This document shows, in pieces, positions 4,545 through 49,245 of a stretch of 64,000 nucleotides of DNA (position 1 is the first letter of the stretch; each line of letters opens with the position of its first letter). A program made the position numbers and the translations under genes. The DNA is from a virus. Its lineage: Duplodnaviria > Caudoviricetes. The stretch covers positions 163,619 to 227,618 of the IMG/VR virus record IMGVR_UViG_3300028591_000081; one strand, 5' to 3'. Under the pieces are notes generated by a model, which was given only the letters and a program-made list of their open reading frames with translations, was not told where the DNA came from and made no database searches.

Positions 4545-5420
4545 CTATCTGAAACGCCGGATAGATAATCGTCTTCCCTCATTCATACGATAGGCAACCG
4601 TGTCACGAACCCAGTCAGCAAGACCTTCTGCATCCTGAACGTTCTCCACAGTCTTAACGGCTTCATCATCCACATAGATAACCATTGCAAGGGAACCCTT
4701 GTACGGCACAAGCACAACCGTAACCTGATGAGGCATTTTGTTCTTGTCCGAAAAATTCCCTGTATATGTGGCCAGAGCATCTTCGGCAAGAGCTACCGAA
4801 TACACTTTGGTAAGGTCGATAATGTAATCGGCCCCAACGGACTGTACAGTAACCTCAACAGCTCGTGCGATGTTCTGCGCGGACTCTCTCAAATTCTGAT
4901 TCATCGGGGAAATGTTTTTGTCCAGCACATCACTGTCTTCACCAGTAGCCGAAGTATCCGAACGCTGAGACATTACATAGGCATTAGACTGGTCTCGAAG
5001 GAAATCAAGAAACCCCTGTGCATCGATCCGGCAATTCAGTGACGGGGAGTACCCATCCATACCTTCACATCGCGTGATAATACCATCATTATTGACATCC
5101 AATGTAATGACCAGAGCCTTGGTCTTGTCCGTAACATTAGATTCCAGAGTGTCATCGAAAGCCGTAAGTGTCCATGTCTCTGTACCATCTTGATGATGGA
5201 CGATATCTAGGTCTGCACGGCTCCCGCATCCCGCCTGTGTAAGAATGCTGTCAATAACGCTCTCAAGAGCTTCACGGGTTTCTACATTCTCAAATATGTC
5301 GGAAGGTTTCCCGACTTCGAGATTTTCAGCTACGACCTCCATGTCGAAGTTTTCATACTTCGGAACACGGAATGCCGGTGCGATTCGTCGGCCATCGCGG
5401 CCTGTAAGCGTATTACTCAT
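4545..5420 (-). CDS. Putative internal head protein; basic leader and basic C-terminal tail
   Basis: Leader ..GRRIAPAFRVPKYE|N, internal NLRE|SA, tail RMNE|GRRLSIRRFR; acidic body. Confidence 0.55.
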   Translation of the reverse strand: MSNTLTGRDGRRIAPAFRVPKYENFDMEVVAENLEVGKPSDIFENVETREALESVIDSILTQAGCGSRADLDIVHHQDGTETWTLTAFDDTLESNVTDKTKALVITLDVNNDGIITRCEGMDGYSPSLNCRIDAQGFLDFLRDQSNAYVMSQRSDTSATGEDSDVLDKNISPMNQNLRESAQNIARAVEVTVQSVGADYIIDLTKVYSVALAEDALATYTGNFSDKNKMPHQVTVVLVPYKGSLAMVIYVDDEAVKTVENVQDAEGLADWVRDTVAYRMNEGRRLSIRRFR

Positions 5421-5432
5421 AGGCCACCTCCA

Positions 5433-6035
5433 TTACGCATTGGTATCACTGGAAGAAACCGTTGTACGCTCCAGACGGTCACACGAGAAACTGCACGTGA
5501 TCTGTGTGAACCCGCCACCCGTACCCATGTTCGGGATATTGATGTTCGTCGGGAAAAGCCCAAAGACTTCCCACGAACGAATAACGCTGGCGTCAGGGGC
5601 AAACACAAGAAGGGATGCCGTAGTTTTGTAATTCACGGCCAGACCCATGAGCTTGTCTCCATCGAAATTGTAAATAAGACGGAACCAGTCCAGAAGCATG
5701 TTCTGAATATCGTAACCGATACTGTCAATGCAGTTGATGGACACCTGACCACCCATAGTCGGGTTCGTTGCAATAAAGACCTGCTCATTACCACGTTTGA
5801 TGCTCTGAGGAGTGACCGACAGGGCCGGTAAAGAGACAGACTGCACTGCAAGACGAATGATGTTGGAGTCATTTTGCGTAAAGGCACGTCGCGCTGAGTT
5901 CATCTTCTCAGGGAATGCCTGTGTAGGAAGGTTGATTACCAATTCCCAATGAGAGTCGCGTTGCGGTTCCCAGTTCGCATTGTCTGTAAAATGGGACGCA
6001 CCATAATACTGGGATAATCTTACGTCACTAGCCAT
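5433..6035 (-). CDS. Tail tube protein (T4 gp19-like)
   Basis: 200 aa; EPQRDSHWEL, SVSLPALS, LLDWFRLIYN, YKTTASL, W..FGLFPTNI match the gp19 family pattern; lies downstream of the sheath. Confidence 0.85.
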   Translation of the reverse strand: MASDVRLSQYYGASHFTDNANWEPQRDSHWELVINLPTQAFPEKMNSARRAFTQNDSNIIRLAVQSVSLPALSVTPQSIKRGNEQVFIATNPTMGGQVSINCIDSIGYDIQNMLLDWFRLIYNFDGDKLMGLAVNYKTTASLLVFAPDASVIRSWEVFGLFPTNINIPNMGTGGGFTQITCSFSCDRLERTTVSSSDTNA

Positions 6036-6050
6036 AATGGTACCTCCTTA

Positions 6051-7103
6051 TTACTTAGCCGGTTTCGGATTTCCGGGGGCCAAGCGATGAATACGGAACC
6101 CGTTGATTCTGGATTCAGTAGCAATCACCACCTTGTGGTTCTTCGCATAAACACGAATATCGCTGGGATCTTCTGCTTCAGAAGACTCCGTAACGGTCTC
6201 GCTGATGTCAGGAAATTCTGCTGAATCTGCGGCCTGAATCGCCTGATTTGCTGAGGCATCGGGTTTAAGATCCAAGTCCTGAGGCGTCACCTGTTCAGGA
6301 GCAGGAATGTCGTCCTCATTTTTCTTCTTGCGCTCAGGAGATTTGGCCCACAGCATAGCCTCCCGGAATGCCTTGCTGGCCGAGTTGTCATCCGTGAAAT
6401 CCTCAAATTCTTTGGTCTTGGTGTAAATCTTTGCGAAGGGCTGATCTCCGCATTCCACGAATACATCCACACCGGCATTGTACGCCTGTGCACAGACCTT
6501 CATGGCGTCCTGCAAAGACTCAAACTCACCTGAGTATTTCTTACGTGTCGCCGCATGTTCACGAGTAATGCAGGACACCTTGTACAAACAGTCCTCTCCT
6601 TCATTCGCAGAAGCCTTGCAGATAGAAGCCACTTTGTGGACTTTTTCGGTCTTGGCCTTGCTTGATTTCAGGAACGTAATGCGATGAATGGAAACCTCAC
6701 CATTCGATCCGTTCAACGCCTTCCCTTCAACACAGACCAAGTCTCCCTTTCGGACATGCTTTAGGATGATTTCCTTGGACTTGCCGCCCGTAGAGCAAAT
6801 CCGTTCCAAAGTCTGATCTCCGACGCCGCTCGAATAGACCAGAGTAAGGACAACTTTTCGACCCTTCATCTCTGGGTCGGATTTCACCCTGCCAATGATG
6901 ATGGTGTACGACATCCCGTCCTCATTCGCGAGATCATCATCTGTTGCACCCATGGTCTTAGCCAGTATGTCAAATTCTTTCTGGGACTCTGCCTCAATCA
7001 CGTCATCGGACAGAACGTTCTTTTCAAGATGACGACGGAACGAGTTGCGATACTCATTCTCACGATTACGCATATCCATGTTGCGCCAATTTTTGCGAAT
7101 CAT
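6051..7103 (-). CDS. Putative internal head protein containing an SSB-like OB-fold
   Basis: Leader MIRKNWR..FRRHLE|K; YTIIIGRVKSDPEMK and HVRKGDLVCVEGKAL resemble SSB strands; internal RKKKNE|D; tail ATE|SRINGFRIHR. Confidence 0.5.
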   Translation of the reverse strand: MIRKNWRNMDMRNRENEYRNSFRRHLEKNVLSDDVIEAESQKEFDILAKTMGATDDDLANEDGMSYTIIIGRVKSDPEMKGRKVVLTLVYSSGVGDQTLERICSTGGKSKEIILKHVRKGDLVCVEGKALNGSNGEVSIHRITFLKSSKAKTEKVHKVASICKASANEGEDCLYKVSCITREHAATRKKYSGEFESLQDAMKVCAQAYNAGVDVFVECGDQPFAKIYTKTKEFEDFTDDNSASKAFREAMLWAKSPERKKKNEDDIPAPEQVTPQDLDLKPDASANQAIQAADSAEFPDISETVTESSEAEDPSDIRVYAKNHKVVIATESRINGFRIHRLAPGNPKPAK

Positions 7104-7204: not shown

Positions 7205-10153
7205 TTACGTAATGCTGGATTCAACCGTATTTGCCGAGGAATTGACCACAAACTCAACAGTGTAAATTTCAGCATCAGGCACAAACTGCAACTCAATCAC
7301 GCCATTGATTTTACGCTGGGCAATGAGTTCTGCTTTGGTTGTGTCAAAACCCATCTTCACGGTATAGGCCGCAAGTCCACCAAGAGACGCCAGCGGTGCC
7401 AGAATCATTGAGGACACGTACTGTTTCCACCGTTGCCACAGACTCAAATCATTCAGGGAGAACACCTGAGTGTTCGTGTAACGATCCACCCGAGAACGGA
7501 TGTAGATAAGAGTTCGCGCAATGTGGGCGGCACTCAAGTCAGAGTACACAGGATTCAGAGTTTCGTTCCCGTAAATCTGGATACCCTGCACACCGAGATC
7601 GTAAATCGGGTTGATGTGGTAGTTGATGAGCTTGTCTCGTTCAAATTTCTGCGCCGGATTACGAGTTACCCGAACCTCATCTCCAAGGACACCTCCCTGT
7701 TCACCGGCTACCGGATAGAAGGTACCACGGACGCGATATGAAGCCAGTCCCTTCATAATAACCTGATACGCAGGAGACATCGGTACAACAACGGTTTTGC
7801 TCGGAACGCCATTGTTGAACTTCTGACAGGTGATGTTGATCCAATCCCAGTACATCTCACAGTAGAAGCTCTGATCCGCATAGGAGATGGCCCCAGTCGA
7901 ACCATACTCCCAGAGATCCGAGTACTCTCCAAGGGAGTTGACCCAGTTACAGGCTTCATCAAGAGACATGCCCCAAGGCGTCGTGAACACACAGGTGAGA
8001 TCTTTACGGTCAGCCGCAATCATCTTGATCAGGTAATGAAGGGCGCGACGTTCCGATTCGTCTGCGGATTCTGAGAGATGGCAGATTTTACCGTCTTTGT
8101 CAGTAACCATGGCCGATAACTCAGAGATAAAGCATCCAGAGTATCGAGGATCGACAAATTCGTTAAGGGCAGTCTGATAGTCCTTGACCGACACGTTAAA
8201 GTGGCCTTCCGAAAGTTCCACAGGCTGGGAGCAGTTCTTCCCCTCGATGACCAAGGCACGAAGAGACGACACTATGTCAAAATCTTCTTCCTTGTACGGA
8301 TCCATCATGGTGAAAGTAAGGTAACTGCCTAAGACAGAGTTGAGGGATGCAATGAACGATCCGTTGGTCAGGTTCTCAGGAATAGAGAACCGAGCTTCCT
8401 TGATAATCCCCTTGTCAGGAGCGGCCTCGTCATAGCTCTCATACAGCTTGACATCCATTGCATACAGCTTGAGCGATTTCGGCTTCAACTGAACCAAATC
8501 CGTCTTGAGATAGAGCTTGTCTGTAATACTCGACACGGCTTCTGCATAAGGTTCCGTCGCATTGGTATGTTTCACCGTAACAGGGAAACCGTCGTCATAC
8601 GGAATCGGATTTCCTTCCGTATCGAGCTTCATGGGAATCGTGATACGAGTGTAGGTCTTCCCTTCCTTCACTTCCGTAGAAACCGTATAATCCACGCCTT
8701 CCACCAAGCATGTGCAGGACACCGGGCTGTTGGCAATGCAAAGACGAGTGTCTCCGGACTCCAGAGCTTTGAAGGTAATCTTACCACGTTCCTTGGCCCC
8801 TTCAAAGTTAGACTGTGTGAATGGAACATCGACGCCGGTCGATTTACACGGAACCATGTCTGGAACGAACCGACCAAGCATATCCGCACTACGTTCTTCC
8901 TTTGTAAGAGCATTGGCGGTGCTGTAAATTGCCATGGCCACAGCGATGTTCATGCCGAGCTGAGTACCTGTGCTGACTATCTTTGCACTCGAAGGATAAG
9001 TTCCGTAGGTTCCAGAAGGCACACTGGTAGCAATCGTGTCACTGCCGTGCATCAGAACAACGTACTTATTGTCCTGAACAGCATCCTTGATATCCGTATT
9101 GGAGAACCAATCCACGTCGGTAGTTTCGATGGCGATAACCGAACCTTCAGAAGCACCATACGACGTGAGGGTAGGAATGAGTCTGGCCAAGTCTGCATCA
9201 GGATCTGCCTCGTTGAATGGAATGAGAACAAAGTCTCCAGCCTTGGCCGTGTCCAGCCAGAACAGAACAATCTCATGCAACGGGGAATCCGTATCTACAC
9301 CATAAACATTGCGAAGATCTGCGATTGTGGAAATCTTCCACGCTCCGTGATAAACACCAGAACCGCCTTCCATCTGCTTCCATTCATTGAACGCCGTAAG
9401 GAGGTCTTCTGCGGGCTTGTCGAACATCCCAGAGACCACTGCATTCCCTGCAAAGGCATTCGCAATAGAATCTCCAGAAGAGGCAAGGTGATCAATCTCT
9501 TTTACCTGACTGCCAGAAACTTTACCGATATGAACCGTGTAAATATCTCCGACCTCAACACCATCCTCGGTAACTGTTTCCCGCGACAGTTTCACAGAAA
9601 GTAAGTTCCCGTGATCACCCTTCTCACGCATCTCAACGACATTGTTCGCATCCAGCGTGTACTTCGCGGCGGTATCCGTGTCAGCAAAGGTCATCCCGAA
9701 ACCAAGAACAGGAATGCCCCGACCTCCCGTAAGTTCCGGAATGTTGCAGATACCGGGGATGTCAATGACGCCACGTTCATCCGTGCGCATCTCCTCTGTG
9801 ACAGTCGAATGATCGCTGGCATCCCCCAGCAGAAGAGCGAAACTCGCAGGATCGCCGCTGGGAACCTTTGCGATATACACAGAGAATCCAGCTTTCACAA
9901 TCTCGCGAACAGCATACAAATCGCGGTATTTCTCAGGGTCAATACGAGGATCACCAAAGATACGGTCTAACGCATCCGTGTCCTGAATCAAGACCGGAGC
10001 ATACGCAATCGTGTCCGAGTCTTCTTTAGCTTTCGGCCCCCAAGGGGTAACACATGCAAACAGACCAGCATAATCAAGAATGTTTGTGATTCGAGAGTTG
10101 TCCTTTACATGGGAAACAACATACGCCGCCTCACGTCCTTCAGTCGGTTTCAT
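7205..10153 (-). CDS. Tail sheath protein (gp18-like) with a large central insertion, ~982 aa
   Basis: N-terminal TPWGP..FGDP; C-terminal ERDKLINYHINPI..IYGNETL..HIARTLIYI..GVIELQFVPDAEIYTVEFVV sheath signature; GAGGAG RBS before ATG 10153. Confidence 0.9.
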   Translation of the reverse strand: MKPTEGREAAYVVSHVKDNSRITNILDYAGLFACVTPWGPKAKEDSDTIAYAPVLIQDTDALDRIFGDPRIDPEKYRDLYAVREIVKAGFSVYIAKVPSGDPASFALLLGDASDHSTVTEEMRTDERGVIDIPGICNIPELTGGRGIPVLGFGMTFADTDTAAKYTLDANNVVEMREKGDHGNLLSVKLSRETVTEDGVEVGDIYTVHIGKVSGSQVKEIDHLASSGDSIANAFAGNAVVSGMFDKPAEDLLTAFNEWKQMEGGSGVYHGAWKISTIADLRNVYGVDTDSPLHEIVLFWLDTAKAGDFVLIPFNEADPDADLARLIPTLTSYGASEGSVIAIETTDVDWFSNTDIKDAVQDNKYVVLMHGSDTIATSVPSGTYGTYPSSAKIVSTGTQLGMNIAVAMAIYSTANALTKEERSADMLGRFVPDMVPCKSTGVDVPFTQSNFEGAKERGKITFKALESGDTRLCIANSPVSCTCLVEGVDYTVSTEVKEGKTYTRITIPMKLDTEGNPIPYDDGFPVTVKHTNATEPYAEAVSSITDKLYLKTDLVQLKPKSLKLYAMDVKLYESYDEAAPDKGIIKEARFSIPENLTNGSFIASLNSVLGSYLTFTMMDPYKEEDFDIVSSLRALVIEGKNCSQPVELSEGHFNVSVKDYQTALNEFVDPRYSGCFISELSAMVTDKDGKICHLSESADESERRALHYLIKMIAADRKDLTCVFTTPWGMSLDEACNWVNSLGEYSDLWEYGSTGAISYADQSFYCEMYWDWINITCQKFNNGVPSKTVVVPMSPAYQVIMKGLASYRVRGTFYPVAGEQGGVLGDEVRVTRNPAQKFERDKLINYHINPIYDLGVQGIQIYGNETLNPVYSDLSAAHIARTLIYIRSRVDRYTNTQVFSLNDLSLWQRWKQYVSSMILAPLASLGGLAAYTVKMGFDTTKAELIAQRKINGVIELQFVPDAEIYTVEFVVNSSANTVESSIT

Positions 10154-10310
10154 AATATCTCTCCTCTTTCCTTGCAAGGTACAGGATAACCGCGCATCAC
10201 ATTCAAGAACTTCGGTGTGCGCACACCCACGTCCACTGATGCACGACAAATTCACGTGAAGTTTGATAAACAAACGGCCAGACAACCGACACCTAGATGT
10301 AGACAAAAGA

Positions 10311-10342
10311 AAAGCGCATACCGTGATACGGATATGCGCTTT
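10311..10342 (-). terminator. Intrinsic terminator
   Basis: AAAGCGCATA/TATGCGCTTT stem. Confidence 0.7.
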
Positions 10343-10364
10343 GAAGGTAGATCAGACCAAACTT

Positions 10365-11228
10365 TTAATGCCGCAACATAGTTCTCAGGTTTTGTGGCCA
10401 CCCATCAATCGTATCGGTAATCTTTTCCCAATACTCACAAAGTTCGTCAGCGATCTCCTGAAGATTGACCATACTATCCAGACGTTCAATCGTAGTCTTT
10501 AATTCATGCATAGCGTAATCAAAGGAGGATTCAAAAGCACCGTCCACACGATCCATCTCCTCAAGCATGTCAAGGAACGACTCGGTAGAAATCTTCCCAC
10601 GTCCTTTCAGCATCTCTAGGTACTTAGGAAGATCAGAGTCCTCATTCAAATCGAAATCAATATCCGGCTCCAGAAACAAATGAGCGTCGCTTCCAGCAAT
10701 GCGTGACTCGGAGGCATCTTCCAACTGATCAAGACAGGACATGATGCGGTCTTGATAATAAGCCACCTCCTCATTGTCCCGTTTGTGCTCCTGAACCCAA
10801 TACCTGCACCCCCGAACATAGCTTACGAGACGATCTGCATCCTGAGAGGACAGAAAACTCCCTCTCTTCAAAGCCTCACGAATTGTGTTCAAATCCGGAT
10901 CGTCGTCGAGAGAATCATTGGCTTCCTCAAAAGCCTCGAACATCTGAACCATCTCGTCTTTCAGATCAGATTTTTCAGCAGAGGTAAGGAACTTCCTTCG
11001 AGATGTGAAAGACTTTTTTATGTACCCCATGGTCGTTAATACACTCTGGATGTATCGGTCGTTCAGTTTGATGTACAACTCACCCAAATTGCGGAACAGA
11101 CTCTCGGTATCCACACGGAAAACCTCACTGTTATCTGCGTACAGCCATTCCAAGAGGTCTTGAATCGGGTAGTCTCCAAACTGTTCATACTGTAAGGATT
11201 CGCAAATTCTACGATTGATTCTGAACAT
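10365..11228 (-). CDS. Putative internal head protein, acidic helical
   Basis: Leader MFRINRRICE|SL; very D/E-rich body. Confidence 0.55.
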   Translation of the reverse strand: MFRINRRICESLQYEQFGDYPIQDLLEWLYADNSEVFRVDTESLFRNLGELYIKLNDRYIQSVLTTMGYIKKSFTSRRKFLTSAEKSDLKDEMVQMFEAFEEANDSLDDDPDLNTIREALKRGSFLSSQDADRLVSYVRGCRYWVQEHKRDNEEVAYYQDRIMSCLDQLEDASESRIAGSDAHLFLEPDIDFDLNEDSDLPKYLEMLKGRGKISTESFLDMLEEMDRVDGAFESSFDYAMHELKTTIERLDSMVNLQEIADELCEYWEKITDTIDGWPQNLRTMLRH

Positions 11229-11276
11229 AAGACTTCCTTAAAAGGAAAGGGAGGTATCTCACTCCCTTAGTTTGTT

Positions 11277-13133
11277 TTAGTCTCTTCCGTCATAGATGAC
11301 ATCTTCATAGTCATCAGGGTCTACCTCACGAATACTTCCTTCCTGTGCCCATGTATAAATACCACCATCGTGATAGCGGTAGACATCCGCAAACAGGTCG
11401 GTCTCTTCCGTTCGGTACATCTCGTCATAGAACAGGTCTGCATTTTCTTTTACCAGCAGTTCACAAATTTCCTGATCATTGAGATTCTCAAGATTTTCAG
11501 GAATGGTGTCGAAGTATTTTTCAGGATCCTCACGAACCCATCCGGCCAGAATCTCTTCACGGAGTTCCGCTACGGAATCCTCTGGAACAGTAAGTCCGGG
11601 AGCATTCTCAGAACACCAGTTGGCCGCGATGTCCAGAGCCTCTCCTTCCCAAGGTGCCCAGACAAGCATCGTTGAAAGCTGATAACCGGCTCCCGGCCAT
11701 AGACCTACCAAATACAGATTACTGCCGTCCGAAGAATCATTGATGCACCCATAATCAGGGTCTTCGATGTTATTGCTCTCGAAACGACGTGACTTTCCAT
11801 TCGCTTTCATCTTACGTATCGCCTTGGTTTCAACATAGTTACGGTTCACGGTATTACGAACACTGCCAGCATCAGCAGGATCGTTGTTCGCGATGACATC
11901 CAAAGCCTCACCAAATGAGGCACACGCACAACGAATGAGGTAACGAAGACTGTCTTCCTGATCCTGTACACCTGCCGTACAGAGGGCCGTAGGATAATAT
12001 GTGTTGTCCACAAAGGAACATTCATAAGCACGACCTTTGCGTTTCACATAAGCCTTGAAGGTCTTTTCCACAGCATCAGAGACTTCCTGACGGGATGCCG
12101 AGAAACCTTCCATCTTACGAACCGTAACGGCCACACAGAAGGCGTTCAGGTCATAGTCCCCTTCCGGATCATCCAAGCTACCAACATACGGTACACAAAT
12201 CTGAACTACGAAACGAGCCTTCCACGGATTATCACCAGTCGAGCCAGCACAATCCAGAGCAATTCCGCCTACCATACAATGAGCGGTATCCAGACCGTAA
12301 TCTTCCTGAGAAGGATCTCCATCCCATTTGTCAATCCAACGGCGGCCCGTAGGATTGACTGCAAGACCTCCGAACCCAGCTTTCAAGGTTTCAACCAGCG
12401 TTGCGTCATCCGTACTGGATTCTTTAGACATGGAGACGTTGGTGTTCGTTGAGGACTTCAAACGGTTGACGAACTTCAATGCCTCGTCCTCAGCAATCAC
12501 ACGGTACGCGCTACGTTCCCAGTCCTGACGGTTGCCCGGACGACTCTTCTTTGCCGCCTTGTCATCAGGTGCGACACCGGCGATGCGTTTCTTGGCTTGA
12601 AGATAAGCACTGTCAGGGTCTTCGAGGTCTTGGTATTTCTTGTTATGGAAATGTGCACCGGCCCCGTGATCGAGGCTTTTGGAATCGACATCCCCAAACC
12701 CTGTCTGTGTAGAGGCAATAAGGTCTGCAACGCCGGGATAATCCTCAGGAAGTCCAAGCTGTTTAATGGTAGCCAGCACGTCCAGAGCCTTTGCAACCTC
12801 AGAATCATCCGTAAGATCGCGAAGAAGATCCACAATCTCGTCATCGGAAAGAATGTCGTTCTTTTTGCACGCGATGAGGATCTTCTTCAACCGGCTGACT
12901 GCGGACTTTTTGTTTGAAAAGTCATCCCCAACGTCTACCACACCTGATGCCCCGATACCACGACCGGTCTTGATGAAACGGATCAGAGCCTTGATTTCTT
13001 TGTCAATCTCACGCTGACCATGACTACCAACGATGGAAAGATTGAAGATCTTCTGATCAATCACATCCCCATCCTCATAGGACTCAAACCGACGCGCTCT
13101 CAGGCGTCCACGACTGCATGTGTGTCTAATCAT
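11277..13133 (-). CDS. Putative internal head polyprotein
   Basis: Leader MIRHTCSRGRLRARRFE|SY (AAGGG RBS); internal linker KAIRKMKANGKSRRFE|SN before an acidic C-terminal module. Confidence 0.6.
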   Translation of the reverse strand: MIRHTCSRGRLRARRFESYEDGDVIDQKIFNLSIVGSHGQREIDKEIKALIRFIKTGRGIGASGVVDVGDDFSNKKSAVSRLKKILIACKKNDILSDDEIVDLLRDLTDDSEVAKALDVLATIKQLGLPEDYPGVADLIASTQTGFGDVDSKSLDHGAGAHFHNKKYQDLEDPDSAYLQAKKRIAGVAPDDKAAKKSRPGNRQDWERSAYRVIAEDEALKFVNRLKSSTNTNVSMSKESSTDDATLVETLKAGFGGLAVNPTGRRWIDKWDGDPSQEDYGLDTAHCMVGGIALDCAGSTGDNPWKARFVVQICVPYVGSLDDPEGDYDLNAFCVAVTVRKMEGFSASRQEVSDAVEKTFKAYVKRKGRAYECSFVDNTYYPTALCTAGVQDQEDSLRYLIRCACASFGEALDVIANNDPADAGSVRNTVNRNYVETKAIRKMKANGKSRRFESNNIEDPDYGCINDSSDGSNLYLVGLWPGAGYQLSTMLVWAPWEGEALDIAANWCSENAPGLTVPEDSVAELREEILAGWVREDPEKYFDTIPENLENLNDQEICELLVKENADLFYDEMYRTEETDLFADVYRYHDGGIYTWAQEGSIREVDPDDYEDVIYDGRD

Positions 13134-13473: not shown

Positions 13474-13515
13474 ATGATAACAGAAGTCCAGTTATCCAAC
13501 CAAATCAGCACCATT
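13474..13515 (-). promoter_or_regulatory. Motif promoter (ATGGTGCTGAT-N24-TATCAT)
   Basis: Upstream box 13504-13514, TG-extended -10 at 13474-13479. Confidence 0.6.
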
Positions 13516-13548
13516 CAAGGATTTCAACATAACGGAGGTGTGTGCATA

Positions 13549-14562
13549 ATGTCGATTCTCATTACAGGAGGGGCTGGTTTTATAGGCCATCATCTCGCAA
13601 AGCATCTTCTGGAAACATCCTCAGAAGAGCTTGTTCTCATTGACCATCTGGAGGTGGATTACACCGAAAACTTCTATCGTGACATGATGCTGAAATTCAC
13701 AAGACTCTCGCGCCTTGGTATAGACAAGGGTGACTTGATTTCAGGAAAAACCACGATTGTGAATGACCGGTGTGTGTTTCATCGTATGGATATTACAGAC
13801 CGAAAAAATCTTGAGGAAGTGTTTCAGGAACATCGAATCTCCACCGTAATCCATCTCGCCGCCCAAGCCGGAGTTCGAAAGTCTTCTGAGTGCCCTGAGG
13901 AATACATTGCTTCAAACCTAACAGGGTTCTTCAATGTTCTTGACCTCTCAAGAATCTACGGTGTCTCGAAATTCGTGTACGCCTCTAGCTCAAGTGTGTA
14001 CGGAGACTTGCAAAAAGAAAGGTTCTCAGAAGACGACATGCTGGGTTTGCCAAAGAGCTTGTACGCCGCCACAAAGCGTTCTGATGAATTGCTGGCCCAG
14101 TCCTATGCTTCCATGTTCAATATGCCCACCATTGGACTTAGGTTCTTCTCCGTGTATGGGGAGTACGGACGGCCAGATATGGTCGTGTGGAAATGGGTTT
14201 ATGGGATATTAAACGATACCCCAGTAGTCATGTTTGGGAACGGAACGATGGAACGGGATTTCACTTATGTGGGCGACATTGTTCAAGGAATCTCAAAAAT
14301 CCTTGGTACAGAAAAGCATGAAGGAGCGCATATTTACAACCTAGGATACGGGAAACCAGTGAAAATTTCGGATCTGATTCATCGCATCGAAGACCTGTGT
14401 GGAAAACGTGCAAAAATTCAGATGCGTCCAGCGCATCCTTCAGACGTAGAACGAACCTGCGCAGACATCACCAAATTCTTTGCAGAGTATGGGTACAAAC
14501 CCGAAACCACTCTTGAACAAGGCTTGGAACGGTTTGTAAGCTGGTTCAGGAATTACTCGTAG
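13549..14562 (+). CDS. NAD-dependent epimerase/dehydratase (UDP-glucuronate 4-epimerase-like)
   Basis: ITGGAGFIG Rossmann motif, HLAAQAGVR, YASSSSVYG, catalytic YAATK, RFFSVYGEYGRPDM, RDFTYV. Confidence 0.92.
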   Translation: MSILITGGAGFIGHHLAKHLLETSSEELVLIDHLEVDYTENFYRDMMLKFTRLSRLGIDKGDLISGKTTIVNDRCVFHRMDITDRKNLEEVFQEHRISTVIHLAAQAGVRKSSECPEEYIASNLTGFFNVLDLSRIYGVSKFVYASSSSVYGDLQKERFSEDDMLGLPKSLYAATKRSDELLAQSYASMFNMPTIGLRFFSVYGEYGRPDMVVWKWVYGILNDTPVVMFGNGTMERDFTYVGDIVQGISKILGTEKHEGAHIYNLGYGKPVKISDLIHRIEDLCGKRAKIQMRPAHPSDVERTCADITKFFAEYGYKPETTLEQGLERFVSWFRNYS

Positions 14563-14563
14563 T

Positions 14564-14605: not shown

Positions 14606-14681
14606 TACACCAGAAGTTAGGTGAACTTCAAGTTCAAACCAACTCAAGAGTTCAAAAAATCGCTTTGCAGGAGAAAGAGAC

Positions 14682-42294: not shown

Positions 42295-43650
42295 TCATTT
42301 TACCACTGCATCCAACATTTTGTTCAGAAGGGAGGCAACCACTTCGATATAATCCCTCTGCAAGAAGGTGAATGCATAATAGAACGCCTGATTGTTAGCA
42401 CTGTGGGTAAGGTCAGCAAAGTTCACGGTACTCTGGAAATGAACCTTTCGTACCGACATCGTGACTTTCCCTGTCTGATTGAAATCCTTTATCGGAGTGT
42501 AATGCGCATAGGACAAAACATTTGACCAAGAGAATTCCAAATCAATCGGGTAGGCATAAGACAGGTCTCTGAAGTAATGACTGACGGACACCTTGATATT
42601 GCAGGACGTGGCATTTGTCGGATAGCTCTTCTGCTTCAACTGTTCCTCAATCGCATCCGCAAGAGCGTTATTGGCTTTTTCCTGTTCTCTGGACAGGTGA
42701 TGTTTCTTTGAGGCGTCACGAATCAGTTTGTCCAGCCGATCCTTAGACCCCTTGATGAACCACGTCTTGAAAGCATCCACGGACATTTTCTCCAATTTGG
42801 AGACATTGGCGGATTCTGCATTATTCACCATATAGGTCTTTAGGTATGACCAGAAGTCGTCCTGATCATAGGCGTCCAAGGCTCGGATGACGTTTGGGAG
42901 TTCCGTAGAAAAGTCCCAAGTTACTGCCTGTTTACGGAAGTTCGGGGAGACATCGTACACCAAGTCCTTTATGGCCCCCACCTGCCATGCATTGAACTCC
43001 GTATCCACCCAGAGGCAGTACAGAAGGTACAAGGCTTTTGAGAACATCTCCTTGTCCTTGGTATCCTCCAAAGGACGCATGTTCTTGGCCTGACCTATAC
43101 GCATGTCGTCCTGACTCATCGGGGAATCCCCTTCCCAGTGCAATTCGTCGAAGGCATGAACCATCTCATGCTGGAGAGTGTCCAAGGCCGCCCTGTCCAC
43201 ATCACTACCCCGGGTACTGAAGTAGGTGTCGAAATCAGAGGTGCGAATTTTAACCACGACATTACGTGATGCACAGAACCCTTCTGAGGATATAAGGGTT
43301 TCCCATCTCAAGAAGTGATCTTTGAGTTGAAGTGTGGCCAGAACCTTATCCCAGTAATCCTCAATTTCCGCATCGCTGGCCTTTGGATTTTTACTGGTGA
43401 GGTCGTAATCCGAGAGAAGGACGAAGTACACGGACACTCTGTTGTAGGTGTTTTTGCCTTTCTTCACACGGTCTGGAACATCATCCACGGATTCGAGGAA
43501 GTAACTCGAATCTGCAACCCAACATCCGTCAGAAGGGTATTTGTCTTCACGGTATAAATTTTCCAAGGTGGCTTTTGCCGAATAGTACAAAGCCTTCAGA
43601 CCGGCCAAGTCGTACTGAATACCGAACTTCTCAGGTACGAATCTCAACAT
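42295..43650 (-). CDS. Zincin-like metallopeptidase
   Basis: TLQHEMVHAFD (HEXXH) with downstream DTEFNAW; short leader MLRFVPE|K. Confidence 0.65.
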   Translation of the reverse strand: MLRFVPEKFGIQYDLAGLKALYYSAKATLENLYREDKYPSDGCWVADSSYFLESVDDVPDRVKKGKNTYNRVSVYFVLLSDYDLTSKNPKASDAEIEDYWDKVLATLQLKDHFLRWETLISSEGFCASRNVVVKIRTSDFDTYFSTRGSDVDRAALDTLQHEMVHAFDELHWEGDSPMSQDDMRIGQAKNMRPLEDTKDKEMFSKALYLLYCLWVDTEFNAWQVGAIKDLVYDVSPNFRKQAVTWDFSTELPNVIRALDAYDQDDFWSYLKTYMVNNAESANVSKLEKMSVDAFKTWFIKGSKDRLDKLIRDASKKHHLSREQEKANNALADAIEEQLKQKSYPTNATSCNIKVSVSHYFRDLSYAYPIDLEFSWSNVLSYAHYTPIKDFNQTGKVTMSVRKVHFQSTVNFADLTHSANNQAFYYAFTFLQRDYIEVVASLLNKMLDAVVK

Positions 43651-43797: not shown

Positions 43798-44229
43798 CTA
43801 ACGCACAGACTTACGACGCGGGCGACGTGTTTTACGGCATTCATCGGCGTCATGTGGGTCAAGCCAGACCAAGTCATGGAAAAGTTTCTCGGCGTCGGGC
43901 TGTTCACCTGTATCGAAAACTTCCCCGGCTTTGAAGCTACCGTCTTTCTGTTCAATCATAAGCTGTTGCGACATGAAACGACCGTCAGGAACAACCTTGG
44001 TGTAGATGACGCATGTATCCTCGTTCTCGTTGGAGATTTCCATGAATCCCATATCATTGATCCAAATGTCGCAATAGACGCCCTGCTCTTCCAGCATTGC
44101 TTCAATATCCGTGGCAAACGAGTACCACAGATTGTGAGAATCGTCTGCCACGGATTCCACCTTTCGGGATTTCTGGAAACGTTCCAAGCGGGCCGATTTA
44201 ATGTTTCTGTTAAGTTTACGAATCGTCAT
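43798..44229 (-). CDS. Putative internal head protein (single acidic module between basic leader and tail)
   Basis: MTIRKLNRNIKSARLERFQKSRKVE|SV ... DE|CRKTRRPRRKSVR. Confidence 0.65.
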   Translation of the reverse strand: MTIRKLNRNIKSARLERFQKSRKVESVADDSHNLWYSFATDIEAMLEEQGVYCDIWINDMGFMEISNENEDTCVIYTKVVPDGRFMSQQLMIEQKDGSFKAGEVFDTGEQPDAEKLFHDLVWLDPHDADECRKTRRPRRKSVR

Positions 44230-44244
44230 AGTGCCTCCACAAGA

Positions 44245-45597
44245 TTACATGGTGTGAATGATGTCGATGATGATGCTTTCGGCGAGGTCTGAAACGTTAT
44301 CGAAGTCTGCCGTATCGTAGACCCCCATACTCTGGTTGGTGTCTGCGTAGAGAACTTCAACGCTGTCCCAGATATCGACCTTGAACTTGAGGTAATTGCG
44401 AATTGTCAGTATGCCTAGATGGTCTGTCACCATCTTATAGGAACAAACGTAACGAGGATTCACATTGAATCGACGTTTATTACGATTGAATGCCTCCACG
44501 AGAGCTGGCATCAACTCCTCGTAATCGACACCATAAGACTCATTCTTTCGACGAAAACGAGAGACACGGCGAAGAGCTTCCTTCTTTTTGGTCTTAGCCA
44601 GTTGCTTATCGACCAAGGTGATGATTCCGTCGGCCAGCTTGTCAAACTCAGGGGCATCGACATCCACATTCACCGTGATGGAATTGTTATCGTCGTCAGT
44701 AACCTTTGCCTTGTCCTTGCTGTAATCGAGCTGAATCTGAACAGCTTCAGTCTCGCCGGATTTCGGATAAATTACGACCGTAGCCGTACCATTGTCCGTA
44801 ACAAGGATCTCGACCTGACCGCCTTTGTAGTAGGCCGTGAGTTCTGCGTCCACCGCCTTCATGGTATCTGTAAATCCTCCAGTATAATCAGTCTTTACCG
44901 ATTCTTTCTGGAACACGCTCTCACGCTTCTGGAAACGGAAACCGCGACGCTCTACTTTGTGAGATTGGAGGTTATTCAAGATGCGCCACTGAACAGGTTT
45001 TTTCAAAGCAGACAGTTTGAAGGTCTTACCCTGTTCCGTAGAGATAACCACATCCCGGCCATCTTTTTCAATCGTCGTGATGTCATAATAGCGTCCCCAC
45101 ACATCATCCTGCATGTATATGTGCTTTTTGGTGATGTCCACAGAACCTCCGTTGCGATCAAGAACCCCATTGATATAAGCAATGGCATCCTTCAGAGAAT
45201 CGAAATTCTCCGAACTTTCCATATCCGGAAGCACCTTGCCTTTGGTACGTTTGGATGGAACACCTTTCACATAGTACCATTTACGGCTGTCTTTGTCGTA
45301 CAGGTACATATACTCAATAGACTCTTCATGCATCTGGTAGAAGGCTTCGTGAATCGTCTTCACATTATCGATCTTCACGCTAGGTTCATACTCCTGAGAG
45401 AACGTGCAGGTGTCGATTTCAGGATGAAGCGCGGACAGATTTCCCTTCTTCAAGAGGGCACGGATAGTCCGTTCGTCGTTGTAGTAGTTGATGAGGTCTG
45501 CACCTACCCACTCAAGATACCCATCATTGTGGCAGTAAATGTACTCGGCGGACTGTTCTTTGCCGTCGTAGATTCCGATAAAACTTCTTGTGGCCAT
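44245..45597 (-). CDS. Putative internal head polyprotein; N-terminal conserved phage domain (TRS..YCHNDGY)
   Basis: Linkers KVE|RRGFRFQKRE|SVFQKE|S and KKE|ALRRVSRFRRKNE|SY. Confidence 0.6.
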   Translation of the reverse strand: MATRSFIGIYDGKEQSAEYIYCHNDGYLEWVGADLINYYNDERTIRALLKKGNLSALHPEIDTCTFSQEYEPSVKIDNVKTIHEAFYQMHEESIEYMYLYDKDSRKWYYVKGVPSKRTKGKVLPDMESSENFDSLKDAIAYINGVLDRNGGSVDITKKHIYMQDDVWGRYYDITTIEKDGRDVVISTEQGKTFKLSALKKPVQWRILNNLQSHKVERRGFRFQKRESVFQKESVKTDYTGGFTDTMKAVDAELTAYYKGGQVEILVTDNGTATVVIYPKSGETEAVQIQLDYSKDKAKVTDDDNNSITVNVDVDAPEFDKLADGIITLVDKQLAKTKKKEALRRVSRFRRKNESYGVDYEELMPALVEAFNRNKRRFNVNPRYVCSYKMVTDHLGILTIRNYLKFKVDIWDSVEVLYADTNQSMGVYDTADFDNVSDLAESIIIDIIHTM

Positions 45598-45623: not shown

Positions 45624-46961
45624 CTATTCCTCGGAATAGAAATCTTCAAGGTAATCTTTCAAAGCGTCCGCAGGTACCGTGGTGTCTGCAACGACAACCA
45701 CATTCTCGTACACATCCGTTACCGACACATGATTCCCATACACGCTGATACGTATGCAAAGCACTTCCTCATCCTTTGTCGATCCTTCGTAATCATACGA
45801 TCCGTAAAGGATGTAGTCATGCGCTTCCGTTTCGATATCCACCTTTGCCCGGGCTTCCTTGGCAGGAAGGCTATGCTCAAGGAAATCAAGCATTATTCTC
45901 TTGATGTCGCTGACCGTATCGGCAGTGTCCATGATCTTTTCATTTTTAGAAGCCTTGCGAGACGCAGACTTCCGTTCAACAATACGACAAGCCAAGCTGA
46001 GAGGAATTTTCGACAAAGTTTCTTTGGTATAGAGAACACGTCCAGTCTTACGGAAGCTCTCATCGCGCTCATACGGATTGTAATCGAGATCGTTGTTCAC
46101 GCGCTCAACCATGAAATCCTCGGCAACCTGTCTCCAAGCCATATCCCACATCTTGCCTGTATGGTTTCTTGGATGGAACCATTCCCGAATCTGGATGGCA
46201 TAAACGGAACGCAGGGATGAGAAGGTGTCCGGCCCGCCAATCTGCGTAACGGTATTGGAATCTTTGTCCACATCATACACAGGGGACTTCTTGGCCAGCG
46301 CATTCTGCTGAGGATCCTGTGAATTGAACATCACCATACACTGCGATGTGATCTGCAAAGGTTCGGCGGCCATGTCCAAATCCTGACCTGACTTACCCAT
46401 CGCTGTGAGCATGATTTCCTCACACAACTCACGAACCGTTCCGTTATCGTTCAGCTTGAAGTCCTGCACCTTTACGTCAATGTCGCCTTTGACATCCTCC
46501 CCATTGTCGGCCTTGATGTACTCAAAGATGTCCGACAGAACGGCATCCGGGTCTTCACGAAAATACGTGCTGAGAACCTGATTGATGTCATCATCCGTAA
46601 TCGAGATGTGAGATGCCAGAATTTTTGCAGGATCGCTCTTGTCCGATCTAGGATCATCCGAAATGACAAGAATCGTCGGGTACAGCATCGAACTGCCGTC
46701 TTTCTCAGTAGCCGTAAAGACGAAACGGAAGTGATTGGGGTTCTTTAACGCCTTACGCACATCCGCCTCGTCTCCAGCCTTCGCGAGATCTTCCAGAACG
46801 GACTTGCTGGGATAGAACACCTGATAGGGAGCTTTTTTCAGAATATCAGCCAATGCCTTTGCGACCATCCAGAAGGTTCCTGTATGGCTCTCTTTGACCA
46901 GACCTTTCAGACTGGCAGGAATCTTAGAGGATTCCACTGTGTATTTAATGTTCAGACTCAT
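45624..46961 (-). CDS. Putative internal head polyprotein
   Basis: MSLNIKYTVE|SS (GGAG RBS); linker DE|SFRKTGR..RKSASRKASKNE|K before an acidic C-terminal module. Confidence 0.55.
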   Translation of the reverse strand: MSLNIKYTVESSKIPASLKGLVKESHTGTFWMVAKALADILKKAPYQVFYPSKSVLEDLAKAGDEADVRKALKNPNHFRFVFTATEKDGSSMLYPTILVISDDPRSDKSDPAKILASHISITDDDINQVLSTYFREDPDAVLSDIFEYIKADNGEDVKGDIDVKVQDFKLNDNGTVRELCEEIMLTAMGKSGQDLDMAAEPLQITSQCMVMFNSQDPQQNALAKKSPVYDVDKDSNTVTQIGGPDTFSSLRSVYAIQIREWFHPRNHTGKMWDMAWRQVAEDFMVERVNNDLDYNPYERDESFRKTGRVLYTKETLSKIPLSLACRIVERKSASRKASKNEKIMDTADTVSDIKRIMLDFLEHSLPAKEARAKVDIETEAHDYILYGSYDYEGSTKDEEVLCIRISVYGNHVSVTDVYENVVVVADTTVPADALKDYLEDFYSEE

Positions 46962-47050
46962 CTGCATGTCTCCAAGTAATTGATTTAGATTAGACGCAGT
47001 AATACGCCGATACCGTCTCATTATTTGATTGATTTGGTTACTGGTGAAGA

Positions 47051-48175
47051 CTACTCAGTACCTCGAACAGGGATGAGTTCAGACCCTCTCTTATACCCTG
47101 CCAGAAGACCTCCACCTATCGCACACATGTTACCATTATTGTACAAGGTGCCGATTGGACGGGCATTCGGAGTTGTGAGAACCAGTCTGGACGTGTCAAT
47201 GTACCCCTTTAGCGTGTCACCGTACACGATTCGGAATTCATAAGGATCAGAATCCTCTTCGGAGTACCCTGCAAACACCGCAATCTTTGAGAAACGGTCT
47301 TTACCAAGAACAGACGGAATGTAGGTACGAAGGGAGATATAGTACGTATCCGTGTGCAAGTGACAGGGAACCCAGACAGAGGTAGAGTAGTTTGCCGTCA
47401 TGCACGCCGCCGTGGCCACACCGAACTTGTTATGAAGTGGGAGAGCTGGTTCTGTGTCTGAGCCAATACCGCAGTCAGTAATGATGGGCATATTTTCATC
47501 AGTCTCAAGGGACAGACGGACGGCCATATAACGGGATGCAAACGAGGTGTCCCTGTCAGCGTACAGCAAGTCATTCAGGAGATGGCCACATACAAATCCA
47601 CGGAGCTTGTCCCCATCAGACATTTTGTGAGAAAACCCGTAGATTGTGTACCCATCGGAAATGACGATGTAGGAATACCACTCATCGTTTCGATTGATGT
47701 CAAGAAAAGACTTCGGAAAACGGTTTCTGGCCCCGACCGTCCCTACAAAAGGGGTTGCTTGATAAGGCTTACGGATTCCTGTGCATTTATTGGCGGCATC
47801 GAATGTGAACTCGAAGTTCTCATCACACAAAGCTGGAATGACAGAACACATCAGTCCTCCGGCATACTGCCCAGCATGAGCCTCTCCACACTCATCGGTT
47901 CCGGTACGGGCTGGGAGACACATCGAACGAAAAGACGCAGGACAGGAGGATACGTTCAAAGCCAGACAAGCCCTCAAATTCGTGGTGGAATGCTTGATAA
48001 GGACGTAGGCAATCTGTCCGTCATCATTCATGGAATCTTCCCAAGTACTTTGGAGCAACCATCCATAATCCATCATGGAAATGACCAGACCTGTCAGAAC
48101 ACCGCGTGCCCCGGCCATGTCAGAGGTGAATTTCTCACCTGCAAAGGAATACTCGACTCTGGTAAATTCAGGCAT
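47051..48175 (-). CDS. Hypothetical, possibly virion structural protein
   Basis: 374-aa beta-rich ORF in the late-gene region. Confidence 0.5.
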   Translation of the reverse strand: MPEFTRVEYSFAGEKFTSDMAGARGVLTGLVISMMDYGWLLQSTWEDSMNDDGQIAYVLIKHSTTNLRACLALNVSSCPASFRSMCLPARTGTDECGEAHAGQYAGGLMCSVIPALCDENFEFTFDAANKCTGIRKPYQATPFVGTVGARNRFPKSFLDINRNDEWYSYIVISDGYTIYGFSHKMSDGDKLRGFVCGHLLNDLLYADRDTSFASRYMAVRLSLETDENMPIITDCGIGSDTEPALPLHNKFGVATAACMTANYSTSVWVPCHLHTDTYYISLRTYIPSVLGKDRFSKIAVFAGYSEEDSDPYEFRIVYGDTLKGYIDTSRLVLTTPNARPIGTLYNNGNMCAIGGGLLAGYKRGSELIPVRGTE

Positions 48176-48234
48176 GACGGTTTCGCTCCAAGCACAAAAA
48201 GTTATAGGTTACTGCAAAAGACAACAAAAATCTT

Positions 48235-49245
48235 CTACATGGCGTCATCGAGTTCGTCAAATGTCCATTTCTCAATGACACGGCAAGGACGCTTGAGTTC
48301 TCCATTGACATAGTATGAGCAGTCCTCTTCCTGTGCCAGCTTGAGGAGATCACGGATACCTTCTGCGGAATCGTCAAGGGTCTTAAAACCGTCCTGTTGT
48401 TTCAGGCGGCCACGATTCACCGTACTCTTGAGAGAGGAAAGAACATCGGAAGATTTGTTGGAAACCACGGCATTCATAAACTCGTCGCTGGCCTCGACGA
48501 GCATCAGAATGTCTTGCGCTTCAGAGTTCTTCATAAAGTGGTACATGTACCAAACTTCCTCAAAGCCTTCTTCAGGTTTCGGCAACCGAAGGGCACGGAT
48601 TTTCGACATGTCTTCACTCATGTCGAAGTAGTAATAACTGAAGTTCACGCAGTCTTCTGGGTTTCCGCGATAAGCCGCTTTTTCACCTGAAGCATACTGT
48701 TTGAGATCAAAGTCGTCCAGACCCTGACTCAGCTTGTTCACCGCCTTGGTCTTCTTCTGCCAGACAGGGCCATGACCCTGAGAACCCGGGCAATGCATGT
48801 CCTTGAGATACTCCGTCATGTCTTTGTAAGTCTTCATGCAGTAGGCATGACACATCTCATGGGCCATCGTATCACGGAGGTTGTGCAGAGTCTTGAACAC
48901 AAACTGAGAACTGATGGTGATACCCGTGATAGAGGTTTGACTGATGTCGTTATTCACCCAGTTGATTACACCACTACGCTCATATCGGGTCATAAACACC
49001 GAAGTGTGATCAAAGTAACCAAGCACATGAGGCCCGGCATCACGGTACTGAATCCAGTCATCCTGCCATCCGTTGTTTCTGAAGAAATCGCCGAAGTATC
49101 GGTGATCGATGTCCCAGAACTGATCGACCAGAAAATCATGTGATTTCCACTCTTCACGACGAATGTTTTTGCGTGCCAGCTTGGGATCTTCTGCCTCATC
49201 ACGAAGCATACGGGATTTGACGGATTCGTATATGCGTTTGATCAT
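48235..49245 (-). CDS. SprT-like zinc metalloprotease with a short basic leader
   Basis: TMAHEMCHAY..GHGPVWQK SprT signature; leader MIKRIYE|SV. Confidence 0.8.
   Translation of the reverse strand: MIKRIYESVKSRMLRDEAEDPKLARKNIRREEWKSHDFLVDQFWDIDHRYFGDFFRNNGWQDDWIQYRDAGPHVLGYFDHTSVFMTRYERSGVINWVNNDISQTSITGITISSQFVFKTLHNLRDTMAHEMCHAYCMKTYKDMTEYLKDMHCPGSQGHGPVWQKKTKAVNKLSQGLDDFDLKQYASGEKAAYRGNPEDCVNFSYYYFDMSEDMSKIRALRLPKPEEGFEEVWYMYHFMKNSEAQDILMLVEASDEFMNAVVSNKSSDVLSSLKSTVNRGRLKQQDGFKTLDDSAEGIRDLLKLAQEEDCSYYVNGELKRPCRVIEKWTFDELDDAM

Follow-up and report, generated by a model that had tools for sequence, protein, structure and literature searches.

Results

Tagged proteins in the structural block of an uncultured gut phage

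We analyzed the terminal 64 kb of a one-contig phage genome of 227,618 bp (IMG/VR record IMGVR_UViG_3300028591_000081, positions 163,619 to 227,618; this 64,000-nucleotide stretch is called the window, and coordinates are counted from its first letter unless another frame is named). The genome belongs to an uncultured gut phage of ~228 kb, and most window genes lie on the minus strand. Between positions 4545 and 49245, neck, tail and head genes, among them those for the major capsid protein (MCP) as well as a prohead protease of the S77 family, are interspersed with genes for otherwise unrelated proteins that carry the same kind of short peptide, here called the tag: a tract rich in Arg and Lys that ends in Glu and stands either at the N-terminus as a leader or between modules as an internal linker (Table 1). 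About fifteen late proteins are marked in this way. The Glu is designated P1, the residues before it P2 to P8 and the residue after it P1'; a slash marks the bond between P1 and P1'.

Megablast against cultured phages returned no match for the genome, and the closest cultured MCP matches reach only 26-28% identity; a scan of viral contigs with a single sequence likewise gave no match. Metagenomic homologues of the MCP span 97% down to 41% identity, many of them on contigs of 180-310 kb; the metagenomes with relatives include sheep-gut and rumen samples. Comparisons drew on two whole IMG/VR records, G2 (98.6 kb, MCP 68% identical) and G1 (252 kb, MCP 45%), and, for two further phages, on the 21 kb flanking the MCP: L001 (an 89% relative) and L002 (a 46% relative).

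About ten window genes with starts supported by a Shine-Dalgarno (SD) sequence encode a short Glu-ended leader on otherwise unrelated proteins, and such leaders occur likewise in G1, G2, L001 and metagenome homologues. They are 7-27 residues long, often begin M-[I/L/F]-[R/K]... and have a net charge of +1 to +7 (at least +3 in all except two); a signal-peptide reading was rejected, as the hydrophobic core is absent. All 18 peptides cited in a preliminary description of this DNA were located in the named open reading frames (ORFs) at the named positions. Its start codons are preceded by GGAG-type ribosome-binding sites 6-12 nt upstream, although the site of 11277-13133 is weak. It had also divided the proteins into mostly acidic modules of ~100-200 residues; most are indeed acidic (isoelectric point, pI, 4.1-5.4, against a genome median of 5.8) and a few are basic, but their sizes range from 87 to 435 residues.

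Many tagged proteins finish in an Arg-rich tail that has no Glu: at least five basic residues fall within the last 12 in 10 proteins, where 2.2 are expected. The tags were also considered as a DNA recombination cassette, a reading that was rejected, the longest stretch common to different tags being 10 nt. Codons vary from tag to tag, which indicates that the peptide, rather than a DNA cassette, is under selection.

Outside the window, two unrelated proteins encoded at genome positions 90991-92037 (+) and 135388-138036 (-) (L041, L043) share the same C-terminal peptide (..ENRLPRGIRKKYIG and ..EARLPLGIKKKYI), which may be a targeting peptide. The first of these also has a basic Glu-ended leader, ..RQRRYE/A, and an L002 protein finishes ..RVLPRRIKFI.

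The motif exceeds chance only in its strict form

In the preliminary description the tag had been written as (R/K)-x-E/S. This rule proved too loose: [RK]x(1,2)ES was observed 88 times against 84.9 expected from within-protein shuffles of the whole proteome, which supplied the expectations for these patterns. Stricter forms were in clear excess, with 18 occurrences of R[RK]xE[SAG] against 5.9 expected (z 5.1-5.8) and six of RRFE against 0.7. Requiring at least three basic residues in P8-P2, Glu and a small P1' gave 47 against 28.4, and a loose basic cluster followed by E[SAG] only 48 against 30 for the mirrored pattern. When R[RK]xE was followed by a non-small P1' the excess vanished (25 against 24.9), showing that the signal requires a small P1', as expected of a protease site. 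Control patterns, either reversed or with Asp or Gln in place of Glu, showed no excess over shuffles. The real signal consists of several Arg or Lys residues at P3-P6, Glu at P1 and Ser, Ala or Gly at P1'. Strict forms lie 3- to 13-fold above shuffles and were replicated in G1 and G2; in G2, [RK][RK]xxE[SAG] occurs 17 times against 4.7 expected, and related forms are enriched in the genomes of two relatives. Certain strict matches fall in TnpB, a deoxynucleoside kinase, a Toprim protein and a glycosyltransferase (GT2), which is consistent with the expected background of about six.

Two unsupervised approaches were also tried. Two-component expectation-maximization on all Glu-centered windows converged on amphipathic-helix periodicity, as it also did with windows centered on Asp, Gln or Lys. 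In an exhaustive scan that paired one upstream position with P1', Arg/Ser pairs did not rank; the best-scoring pattern was T-x-E-D, which is spread over 36 proteins and looks like a generic helix N-cap motif.

We then scored proteins with a weight matrix trained solely on relatives' sites (75 windows, effective n 46). Its logo has Arg at P4 (0.44), Arg or Lys at P3 (0.61) and P6 (0.47), Asn, Tyr or Asp at P2, and Ser (0.38), Ala (0.13) or Gly (0.10) at P1'. The T4 cleavage motif is Leu/Ile-x-Glu, from which the tags differ, Leu and Ile being rare at P3. On this genome the matrix found 13 matches of at least 8 bits where 2.3 were expected, 12 of them inside the window, and 8 of at least 10 bits where 0.6 were expected. 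Four top matches have no homologous training site. Two of these, including the top score, lie in 24877-26265 (16.0 and 11.6 bits), which has no homologue in the training set at all; another is E268 of 16576-17688 (E272 in the longer ORF; 13.4 bits), beyond the stretch homologous to G2, and the fourth is in a gene outside the window (12.3 bits). At a threshold of 6 bits the minus-strand genes under study have 1.84 matches per 1000 residues; elsewhere in the genome the density is 0.06 (Fisher p 7e-11), and in the control proposed in the preliminary description, the genes at 29-39 kb, it is 0.32 (p 0.054 on a small sample). Tags are nearly missing from replication and other non-structural genes, and the tagged genes belong to the conserved structural block of G2.

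The same matrix found 11 matches of at least 8 bits in G1, against 3.1 expected. Compact leaders of nine residues recur there, such as MVKLRRVNE/A, MVKLRRVYE/S and MRVLKRVKE/S, with MVKLKRCNE/I at 6.5 bits. This leader is near-fixed on dispersed G1 genes (L024-L036; for example 46168-48387, 9310-10524, 154067-154771 and 200759-201079 in G1), and two genes that have it lie directly upstream of the G1 protease and MCP.

The P1 Glu is conserved

Between the window and G2, the P1 Glu is kept exactly in 10 of 11 alignable sites of the preliminary description and is off by one residue in the eleventh, whereas other Glu residues in the same alignments are kept in 54% of cases (p 0.011). At three sites with larger sets of homologues it is kept in 34 of 35, 11 of 12 and 8 of 9 sequences. 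The P1 Glu is conserved far better than the residues of the basic tract.

Relatives fuse, split and swap modules at the tags

At no fewer than nine junctions, relatives fuse, split or swap modules precisely at tags. A single G2 protein of 1085 residues spans two window genes, joining the central module of 11277-13133 to 10365-11228; its ..SKRRNE/A aligns both with the internal ..KSRRFE/S of the former and with the leader MFRINRRICE/S of the latter. The L001 orthologue of 44245-45597 is without the first 209 residues, and its leader ..KRTCKRE/S is an internal linker of the window protein. In 19799-21580, residues 142-336 match an independent G1 protein with a basic leader at its start, and residues 332-591 match a separate G2 protein whose N-terminal ..PIKRE/A aligns with E347. 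In G2 and in P0038-P0041, the module of 43798-44229 stands behind a leader and is joined to the 44245-45597 central module.

Two modules recur widely enough to be followed through several arrangements. Ten metagenomic homologues show the central module of 44245-45597 in six or more architectures, and one of them (601 residues) chains four or five modules. The central module always stands behind a basic tract and Glu, and Glu232 is invariant in an 11-sequence alignment; where it comes first in the chain the leader is present, and where it comes last the protein ends within the basic tract. The last module of 11277-13133 recurs alone in ~20 clusters (50% identity), with matches starting at query residue 452-460, just past the tag. 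About 11-12 of 16 N-terminal copies and 6 of 6 internal copies follow a basic Glu-ended peptide, for example MLKLKRKYE/S or MLRKKSCKE/S.

Content also changes beyond a constant boundary. P0043 and P0045 have different modules beyond the same boundary of the 11277-13133 central module. The G2 counterpart of 26283-28031 reads MIRSKKRRYE/S, the same module, RKRRVE/T and then unrelated sequence, while that of 16576-17688 shares only module 17-131, flanked by ..VFCNE/S and ..RKRKRNE/S, before diverging. The G2 version of 45624-46961 has an additional C-terminal module behind ..RRKYE/S. Between close relatives the set of modules changes quickly, while the MCP, the protease and 47051-48175 stay 64-89% identical.

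Leaders and internal linkers are thus interchangeable between relatives. A plain linker would be needless at the N-terminus, yet modules placed first keep the leader, which argues that the tag has a function of its own. The expected agreement between tags and domain borders was seen in an AlphaFold2 (AF2) model of one protein, 44245-45597 (mean predicted local distance difference test score, pLDDT, 60): the confident parts are residues 1-124, 233-335 and 356-450, and the two segments with pLDDT below 50 (195-232 and 336-355) are the two tag linkers.

One protein, 15590-16549, has the tag in tandem. A 51-bp repeat at 16063-16182 (2.3 copies, 98% identity) duplicates a 17-residue leader-like peptide (..GRMIKFRTRNMVREEEE); it looks like a recent duplication of a former gene start that is now internal to the protein.

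The capsid protein and the prohead protease have the same signature

The MCP signature RRQANE59/S, already pointed out in the preliminary description, was borne out by alignment: the Glu is invariant in 18 sequences and present in 34 of 35 homologues of a wider set. Arg or Lys precedes it in all 18, in forms such as QRRQANE/S, QRHNE/S, KRVTE/G and GIRNE/G. The protease is intact, and its His (..GGHPE..) and Ser (..GISARA..) align with the catalytic positions of T4 gp21 (PDB 5JBL); the S77 match passes the Pfam cut-off, and an S80 match stays below it (22.3 against 23.4 bits). The tag at Glu251 directly follows the catalytic domain. Rather than the many copies attributed to it earlier, the protease has two conserved tags, E251 and E431, and a few weak ones.

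Table 1. Tagged proteins and neighboring structural genes of the window, with predicted cleavage sites (codon of the P1 Glu in brackets).
Feature	Position	Strand	Tags	Remarks
SprT-like zincin	48235-49245	-	7-residue leader MIKRIYE/S (49225-49227); second site RMLRDE/A (49195-49197)	Pfam SprT-like 2.5e-8; SD site precedes ATG at 49245; aligned place in G2 orthologue NKRNE/S; 8.2 bits
Head-module protein	45624-46961	-	Weakly basic leader ..GLVKE/SHTG (46890-46892); internal ..SKNE/K (45939-45941)	E/SH boundary retained: L001 ..IAYE/SH, G2 MIRLNKYNRVNKRYE/SH
Four-part precursor	44245-45597	-	..FQKRE/SVFQKE/S (44920-44922, 44902-44904) before central module; ..RFRRKNE/S (44539-44541) after it	PHROG 1987 domain, second domain, central module, C-terminal module; 10.2 and 9.0 bits
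Small acidic module	43798-44229	-	25-residue leader ..FQKSRKVE/S (44155-44157)	Arg-rich C-terminal tail; P1 Glu kept in 5 of 6 homologues
Prohead protease	40597-42189	-	Glu251, GRKLE/S (41437-41439); Glu431, RYKVE/S (40897-40899)	S77 domain ~1-235; PHROG 207 head maturation protease 2e-38; Pfam PF03420 Peptidase_S77 1.4e-13; basic, coiled-coil C-terminal extension of 295 residues with conserved C-terminal tail; Glu251 tag kept in L001 (GRRTE/S) and G2 (NRKDE/T), Glu431 tag in L001
Major capsid protein, 489 residues	39111-40580	-	..QRRQANE/SV.. at Glu59 (40404-40406)	ATG at 40580; predicted propeptide 1-59; Pfam Gp23 2.9e-27; PHROG major head protein
Precursor	26283-28031	-	Leader MLRRERKHFERKSRRFE/S (27981-27983); ..RKRRLE/K (27408-27410)	Acidic module 18-208 (pI 4.1), tag, 374-residue module, Arg-rich tail; 10.6 and 8.1 bits
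Precursor	24877-26265	-	Leader MIVHHKNTSLRRRFE/A (26221-26223); internal ..RGRRNE/G (25588-25590)	Arg-rich tail; SD before ATG at 26265
Head-tail adaptor	21600-22277			PHROG match
Four-module protein without N-terminal leader	19799-21580	-	..KHRAVE/K (21122-21124); ..RVRLYE/A (20540-20542); ..RMRRFE/E (20183-20185)	
Doubtful member, 72 residues	19469-19687	-	..TRVCE/S (19607-19609)	Upstream of YafQ toxin; 5.9 bits
Precursor	16576-17688	-	Leader MIRPTNKRNSYTLKHE/S (17641-17643); ..RPLKKE/A (17281-17283); ..RKCRYE/S (16885-16887)	Arg-rich tail
Acidic protein	15590-16549	-	Tandemly duplicated internal leader-like tag ..MIKFRTRNMVRE/E (16130-16132, 16079-16081)	
Precursor	11277-13133	-	Leader MIRHTCSRGRLRARRFE/S (13083-13085); ..KSRRFE/S (11778-11780)	Central module 435 residues; last module 166 residues, very acidic (pI 4.1)
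Acidic 277-residue module	10365-11228	-	10-residue leader MFRINRRICE/S (11199-11201)	
Tail sheath	7205-10306			Family search
Weaker candidate, among tail genes	6051-7103	-	Leader MIRKNW..FRRHLE/K (7023-7025); internal ..RKKKNE/D (6315-6317)	Both Glu kept in G2 orthologue (..VRRDE/K; ..RRKKDE/E); neither site above 3.2 bits
Tail tube	5433-6035			Family search
Weaker candidate, acidic, among tail genes	4545-5420	-	Leader ..RVPKYE/N (5352-5354)	Arg-rich tail; below 3.2 bits; G2 conserves ..LPKYE/S

Predicted cargo and accessory genes

The preliminary description had listed DNA mimics, a single-stranded DNA-binding protein (SSB), zincins and a toxin-antitoxin (TA) module as likely cargo. Two of these do not have the tag: the ArdA gene (17700-18443, minus strand; Pfam ArdA 7.5e-32 from residue 9) encodes an N-terminus without a basic tract, and the YafQ-type toxin gene (19089-19469, minus strand; 2.1e-17) has no tag either. 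Both are missing from the syntenic structural block of G2, as are the epimerase-like gene, the GT2 gene and the TnpB insertion. Located within the structural block here but not in G2, ArdA, YafQ and its 72-residue partner look like inserted accessory genes. The partner (19469-19687) has no homologue in G1, G2 or L001 and no family match in Pfam and PHROG scans. As for the SSB, the match of 6051-7103 (E 0.0085) falls below the Pfam cut-off. The zincin claim holds for the SprT-like protein 48235-49245, which is tagged, and for no other zincin.

Apart from the SprT-like zincin, no module had a match in Pfam, in PHROG or among solved folds. With Foldseek, neither the 44245-45597 model nor the central module of 11277-13133 matched a PDB entry at E up to 0.001, and a Pfam search with 26 homologues of the recurrent last module of 11277-13133 gave no match. 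PHROG searches with ten further window proteins identified just the head-tail adaptor and one family of unknown function.

Next to the protease gene, on its upstream side, 42295-43650 (minus strand) encodes a 451-residue protein that has an HExxH metalloprotease-like motif (..QHEMVHAFDELH..) and no tag; it has neither a Pfam or PHROG match nor a homologue in G1, G2 or L001. Further upstream lie two large ORFs that have no family match, 49371-51638, a possible portal from its position alone, and 51672-53507, as well as an ORF of 1928 residues (53612-59398, minus strand) that has no informative family match and no strong tag. The minus-strand structural block is split by an IS200/IS605-type TnpB-like ORF at 22502-23650 (+), 68% identical to the G1 copy, and a second TnpB lies at genome positions 128482-130275 (PHROG transposase 3.3e-55). 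Two more plus-strand genes stand inside the block at 13474-15458; the product of one is epimerase-like, with a Rossmann GGAGFIG motif, and that of the other has an N-terminus resembling a lipoprotein's.

Discussion

From the sequence comparisons we think it probable that the phage's own prohead protease, an S77 enzyme of the T4 type, cuts at the tags; these probably double as prohead-loading signals and would delimit interchangeable modules of internal head proteins. The tags fit the T4 scheme in place, length, P1 and P1', and the first tag of the protease follows its catalytic domain. Late genes would give rise to precursors of one to four mostly acidic modules, usually opening with a leader of 7-27 residues, joined by linkers of the same type and in many cases ending in an Arg-rich tail. 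In the prohead, the protease would cut after the tag Glu; its targets would be the MCP (Glu59), the protease itself (Glu251 and Glu431) and the precursors, from which free modules would result. Because the cut would come after Glu, inner modules would retain a basic tract at their C-terminus. We infer cleavage and head loading, and a later fate in which the modules are either ejected with the DNA or expelled like scaffold fragments.

A more ambitious version would make the tag a plug-in code at the peptide level, which we hold only tentatively and think somewhat unlikely in its full form. One signature, an Arg/Lys tract followed by x-Glu and a small residue, would serve both as loading signal and as cut site, so that the modules it flanks could move between genes and still reach the head; after cutting, the Arg-rich C-terminal tail would tie an acidic module to the packaged DNA, with which it would leave at infection. 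The signature would then allow packaged proteins to be recognized in uncultured jumbo-phage genomes of this clade, and it would imply a basic-specific S77 protease.

Several observations weigh against reading the tags as protease sites on internal head proteins. The matrix was trained on homologues of window proteins, so that the enrichment is partly by construction, and both the unsupervised mixture model and the two-position scan miss the motif. The genes 4545-5420, 6051-7103 and 10365-13133 sit among neck and tail genes, away from the head genes, and certain conserved sites have Lys, Glu or Asn at P1'. Domain borders were compared on a single folded protein of mean pLDDT 60, and, the SprT-like zincin apart, no module has a fold or family match that would point to an effector role. 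P3 is mostly Arg or Lys, whereas T4 has Leu/Ile there and phiKZ and SPN3US have Ser/Ala/Gly, and such a basic specificity is without precedent in the papers cited here on those proteases.

Other explanations account for part of these data. The modules might be effectors for anti-defense and takeover, namely DNA mimics, an SSB, zincins and a TA module, which enter the head, are released by cutting and are injected along with the DNA. Fast turnover of modules beside a stable MCP, protease and 47051-48175 is what arms-race cargo would be expected to show, one tagged protein is a SprT-like zincin, and precedents exist in the T4 internal proteins and Alt (PMC3012670, PMC9958956), P1 Dar (PMC9024508), the SPN3US ejection proteins (PMC10052503) and polyvalent proteins (PMC5512222). 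However, ArdA and the YafQ toxin are untagged, lineage-specific insertions, the SSB is below threshold and the remaining modules match no known family or fold. T4 gp22, gp67 and gp68 are expelled core pieces, and the strongly acidic modules could equally be scaffold-like core pieces expelled in the same way; we regard a general effector role as unlikely. It is less probable still that the basic tracts are uncleaved flexible linkers or tails that bind nucleic acid or an acidic partner, their terminal Glu being incidental. That would suit the Glu-free Arg-rich tails on many of the same proteins (10 against 2.2 expected) and the location of the tracts in low-confidence regions of the AF2 model, but it does not explain why modules placed first retain a basic Glu-ended leader, why the P1 Glu is conserved far above basic residues or other Glu, why the excess depends on a small P1', or why the end of the MCP propeptide bears the same signature.

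Cleavage by a different enzyme, either a zincin-like protein of the head module (48235-49245 or the HExxH protein 42295-43650) or a host protease, seems very unlikely to us. Two metalloprotease-like genes do lie between ORF 49371-51638 and the protease gene, and zincin domains have been proposed to process polyvalent proteins (PMC5512222). Cutting after Glu, however, is the hallmark of the gp21, gp175 and gp245 proteases (PMC5694885), the MCP and the S77 protease here carry the same signature as the precursors, and 42295-43650 has no homologue in G1, G2 or L001. We give the least credence to a chance or compositional pattern chosen by eye. The unenriched loose expression, the strict matches in TnpB, the kinase, the Toprim protein and GT2, and the unsupervised searches that miss the motif would agree with it, but the 3- to 13-fold excess of strict forms replicated in G1 and G2, the orthologous conservation and the nine or more rearrangement junctions at tags largely refute it.

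If the tags are indeed prohead-protease sites, they would allow head-internal proteins to be listed from sequence across a clade of uncultured gut and rumen jumbo phages, and they would widen the known specificity of gp21-type proteases to basic P3-P6 contexts. Packaged proteins could then evolve by module shuffling at a short peptide joint. The leader could load foreign proteins, as T4 and P1 signals do, and the modules, all of unknown function, would form a candidate pool of early-acting phage proteins.

The general idea is already in print, in the form of T4 capsid-targeting sequences, of processing at several sites in phiKZ and SPN3US, of P1 Dar and of polyvalent proteins. The characterized proteases of this lineage, T4 gp21, phiKZ gp175 and SPN3US gp245, all cut after Glu; besides taking off the MCP propeptide they act on many head proteins, in some cases at more than one site, and on themselves by trimming (PMC9958956, PMC5694885, PMC10052503). 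In T4, a leader of 10-20 residues loads diverse internal proteins and is then removed by gp21 (PMC3012670). The phage studied here resembles T4 with its IPI, IPII, IPIII and Alt in having an S77 protease and a gp23-type MCP with a propeptide of ~60 residues ending in Glu (PMC3012670, PMC9958956, PMC5694885), short Glu-ended leaders (7-27 residues against 10-20) and diverse cargo that has only the tag in common. It differs in the Arg/Lys-rich P3-P6 in place of Leu/Ile at P3, in the reuse of the tag between modules, in the Arg-rich tails and in the dispersal of tagged genes over a neck, tail and head block.

The phages phiKZ, 201phi2-1 and SPN3US, with S80 rather than S77 proteases (gp175, gp245), likewise have many head proteins cut after Glu, with several cuts per precursor (PMC10052503, PMC5694885), and the SPN3US enzyme gp245 has a preference for Ser at P1' and shortens itself at the C-terminus (PMC10052503, PMC5694885). 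Their motif is A/S/G-x-E, however, with Val at P4 in SPN3US, and nearly all cuts there remove N-terminal propeptides and do not separate unrelated modules. Phages and conjugative elements also encode polyvalent proteins (Iyer et al. 2017, PMC5512222), chains of 2-15 unrelated, fast-shuffled domains whose genes lie close to virion genes; these proteins are predicted to enter the particle and travel with the DNA, and some are proteolytically processed (PMC5512222). They contain known effector domains and are often processed by a built-in zincin, whereas the modules here, except for the SprT-like zincin, match no known family and their joints bear a stereotyped head-protease signature. In phage P1, the anti-defense Dar proteins are loaded into the head through an N-terminal signal, and DarA and DdrB are processed (PMC9024508), but the protease is HK97-like, there is no common tag and loading is hierarchical, through partner proteins (PMC9024508). 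Compared with these systems, three things are new: the tag is Arg-rich, it serves as leader and joint and, where Glu is missing, as tail, and shuffling at the joints is well documented in a clade of gut and rumen jumbo phages.

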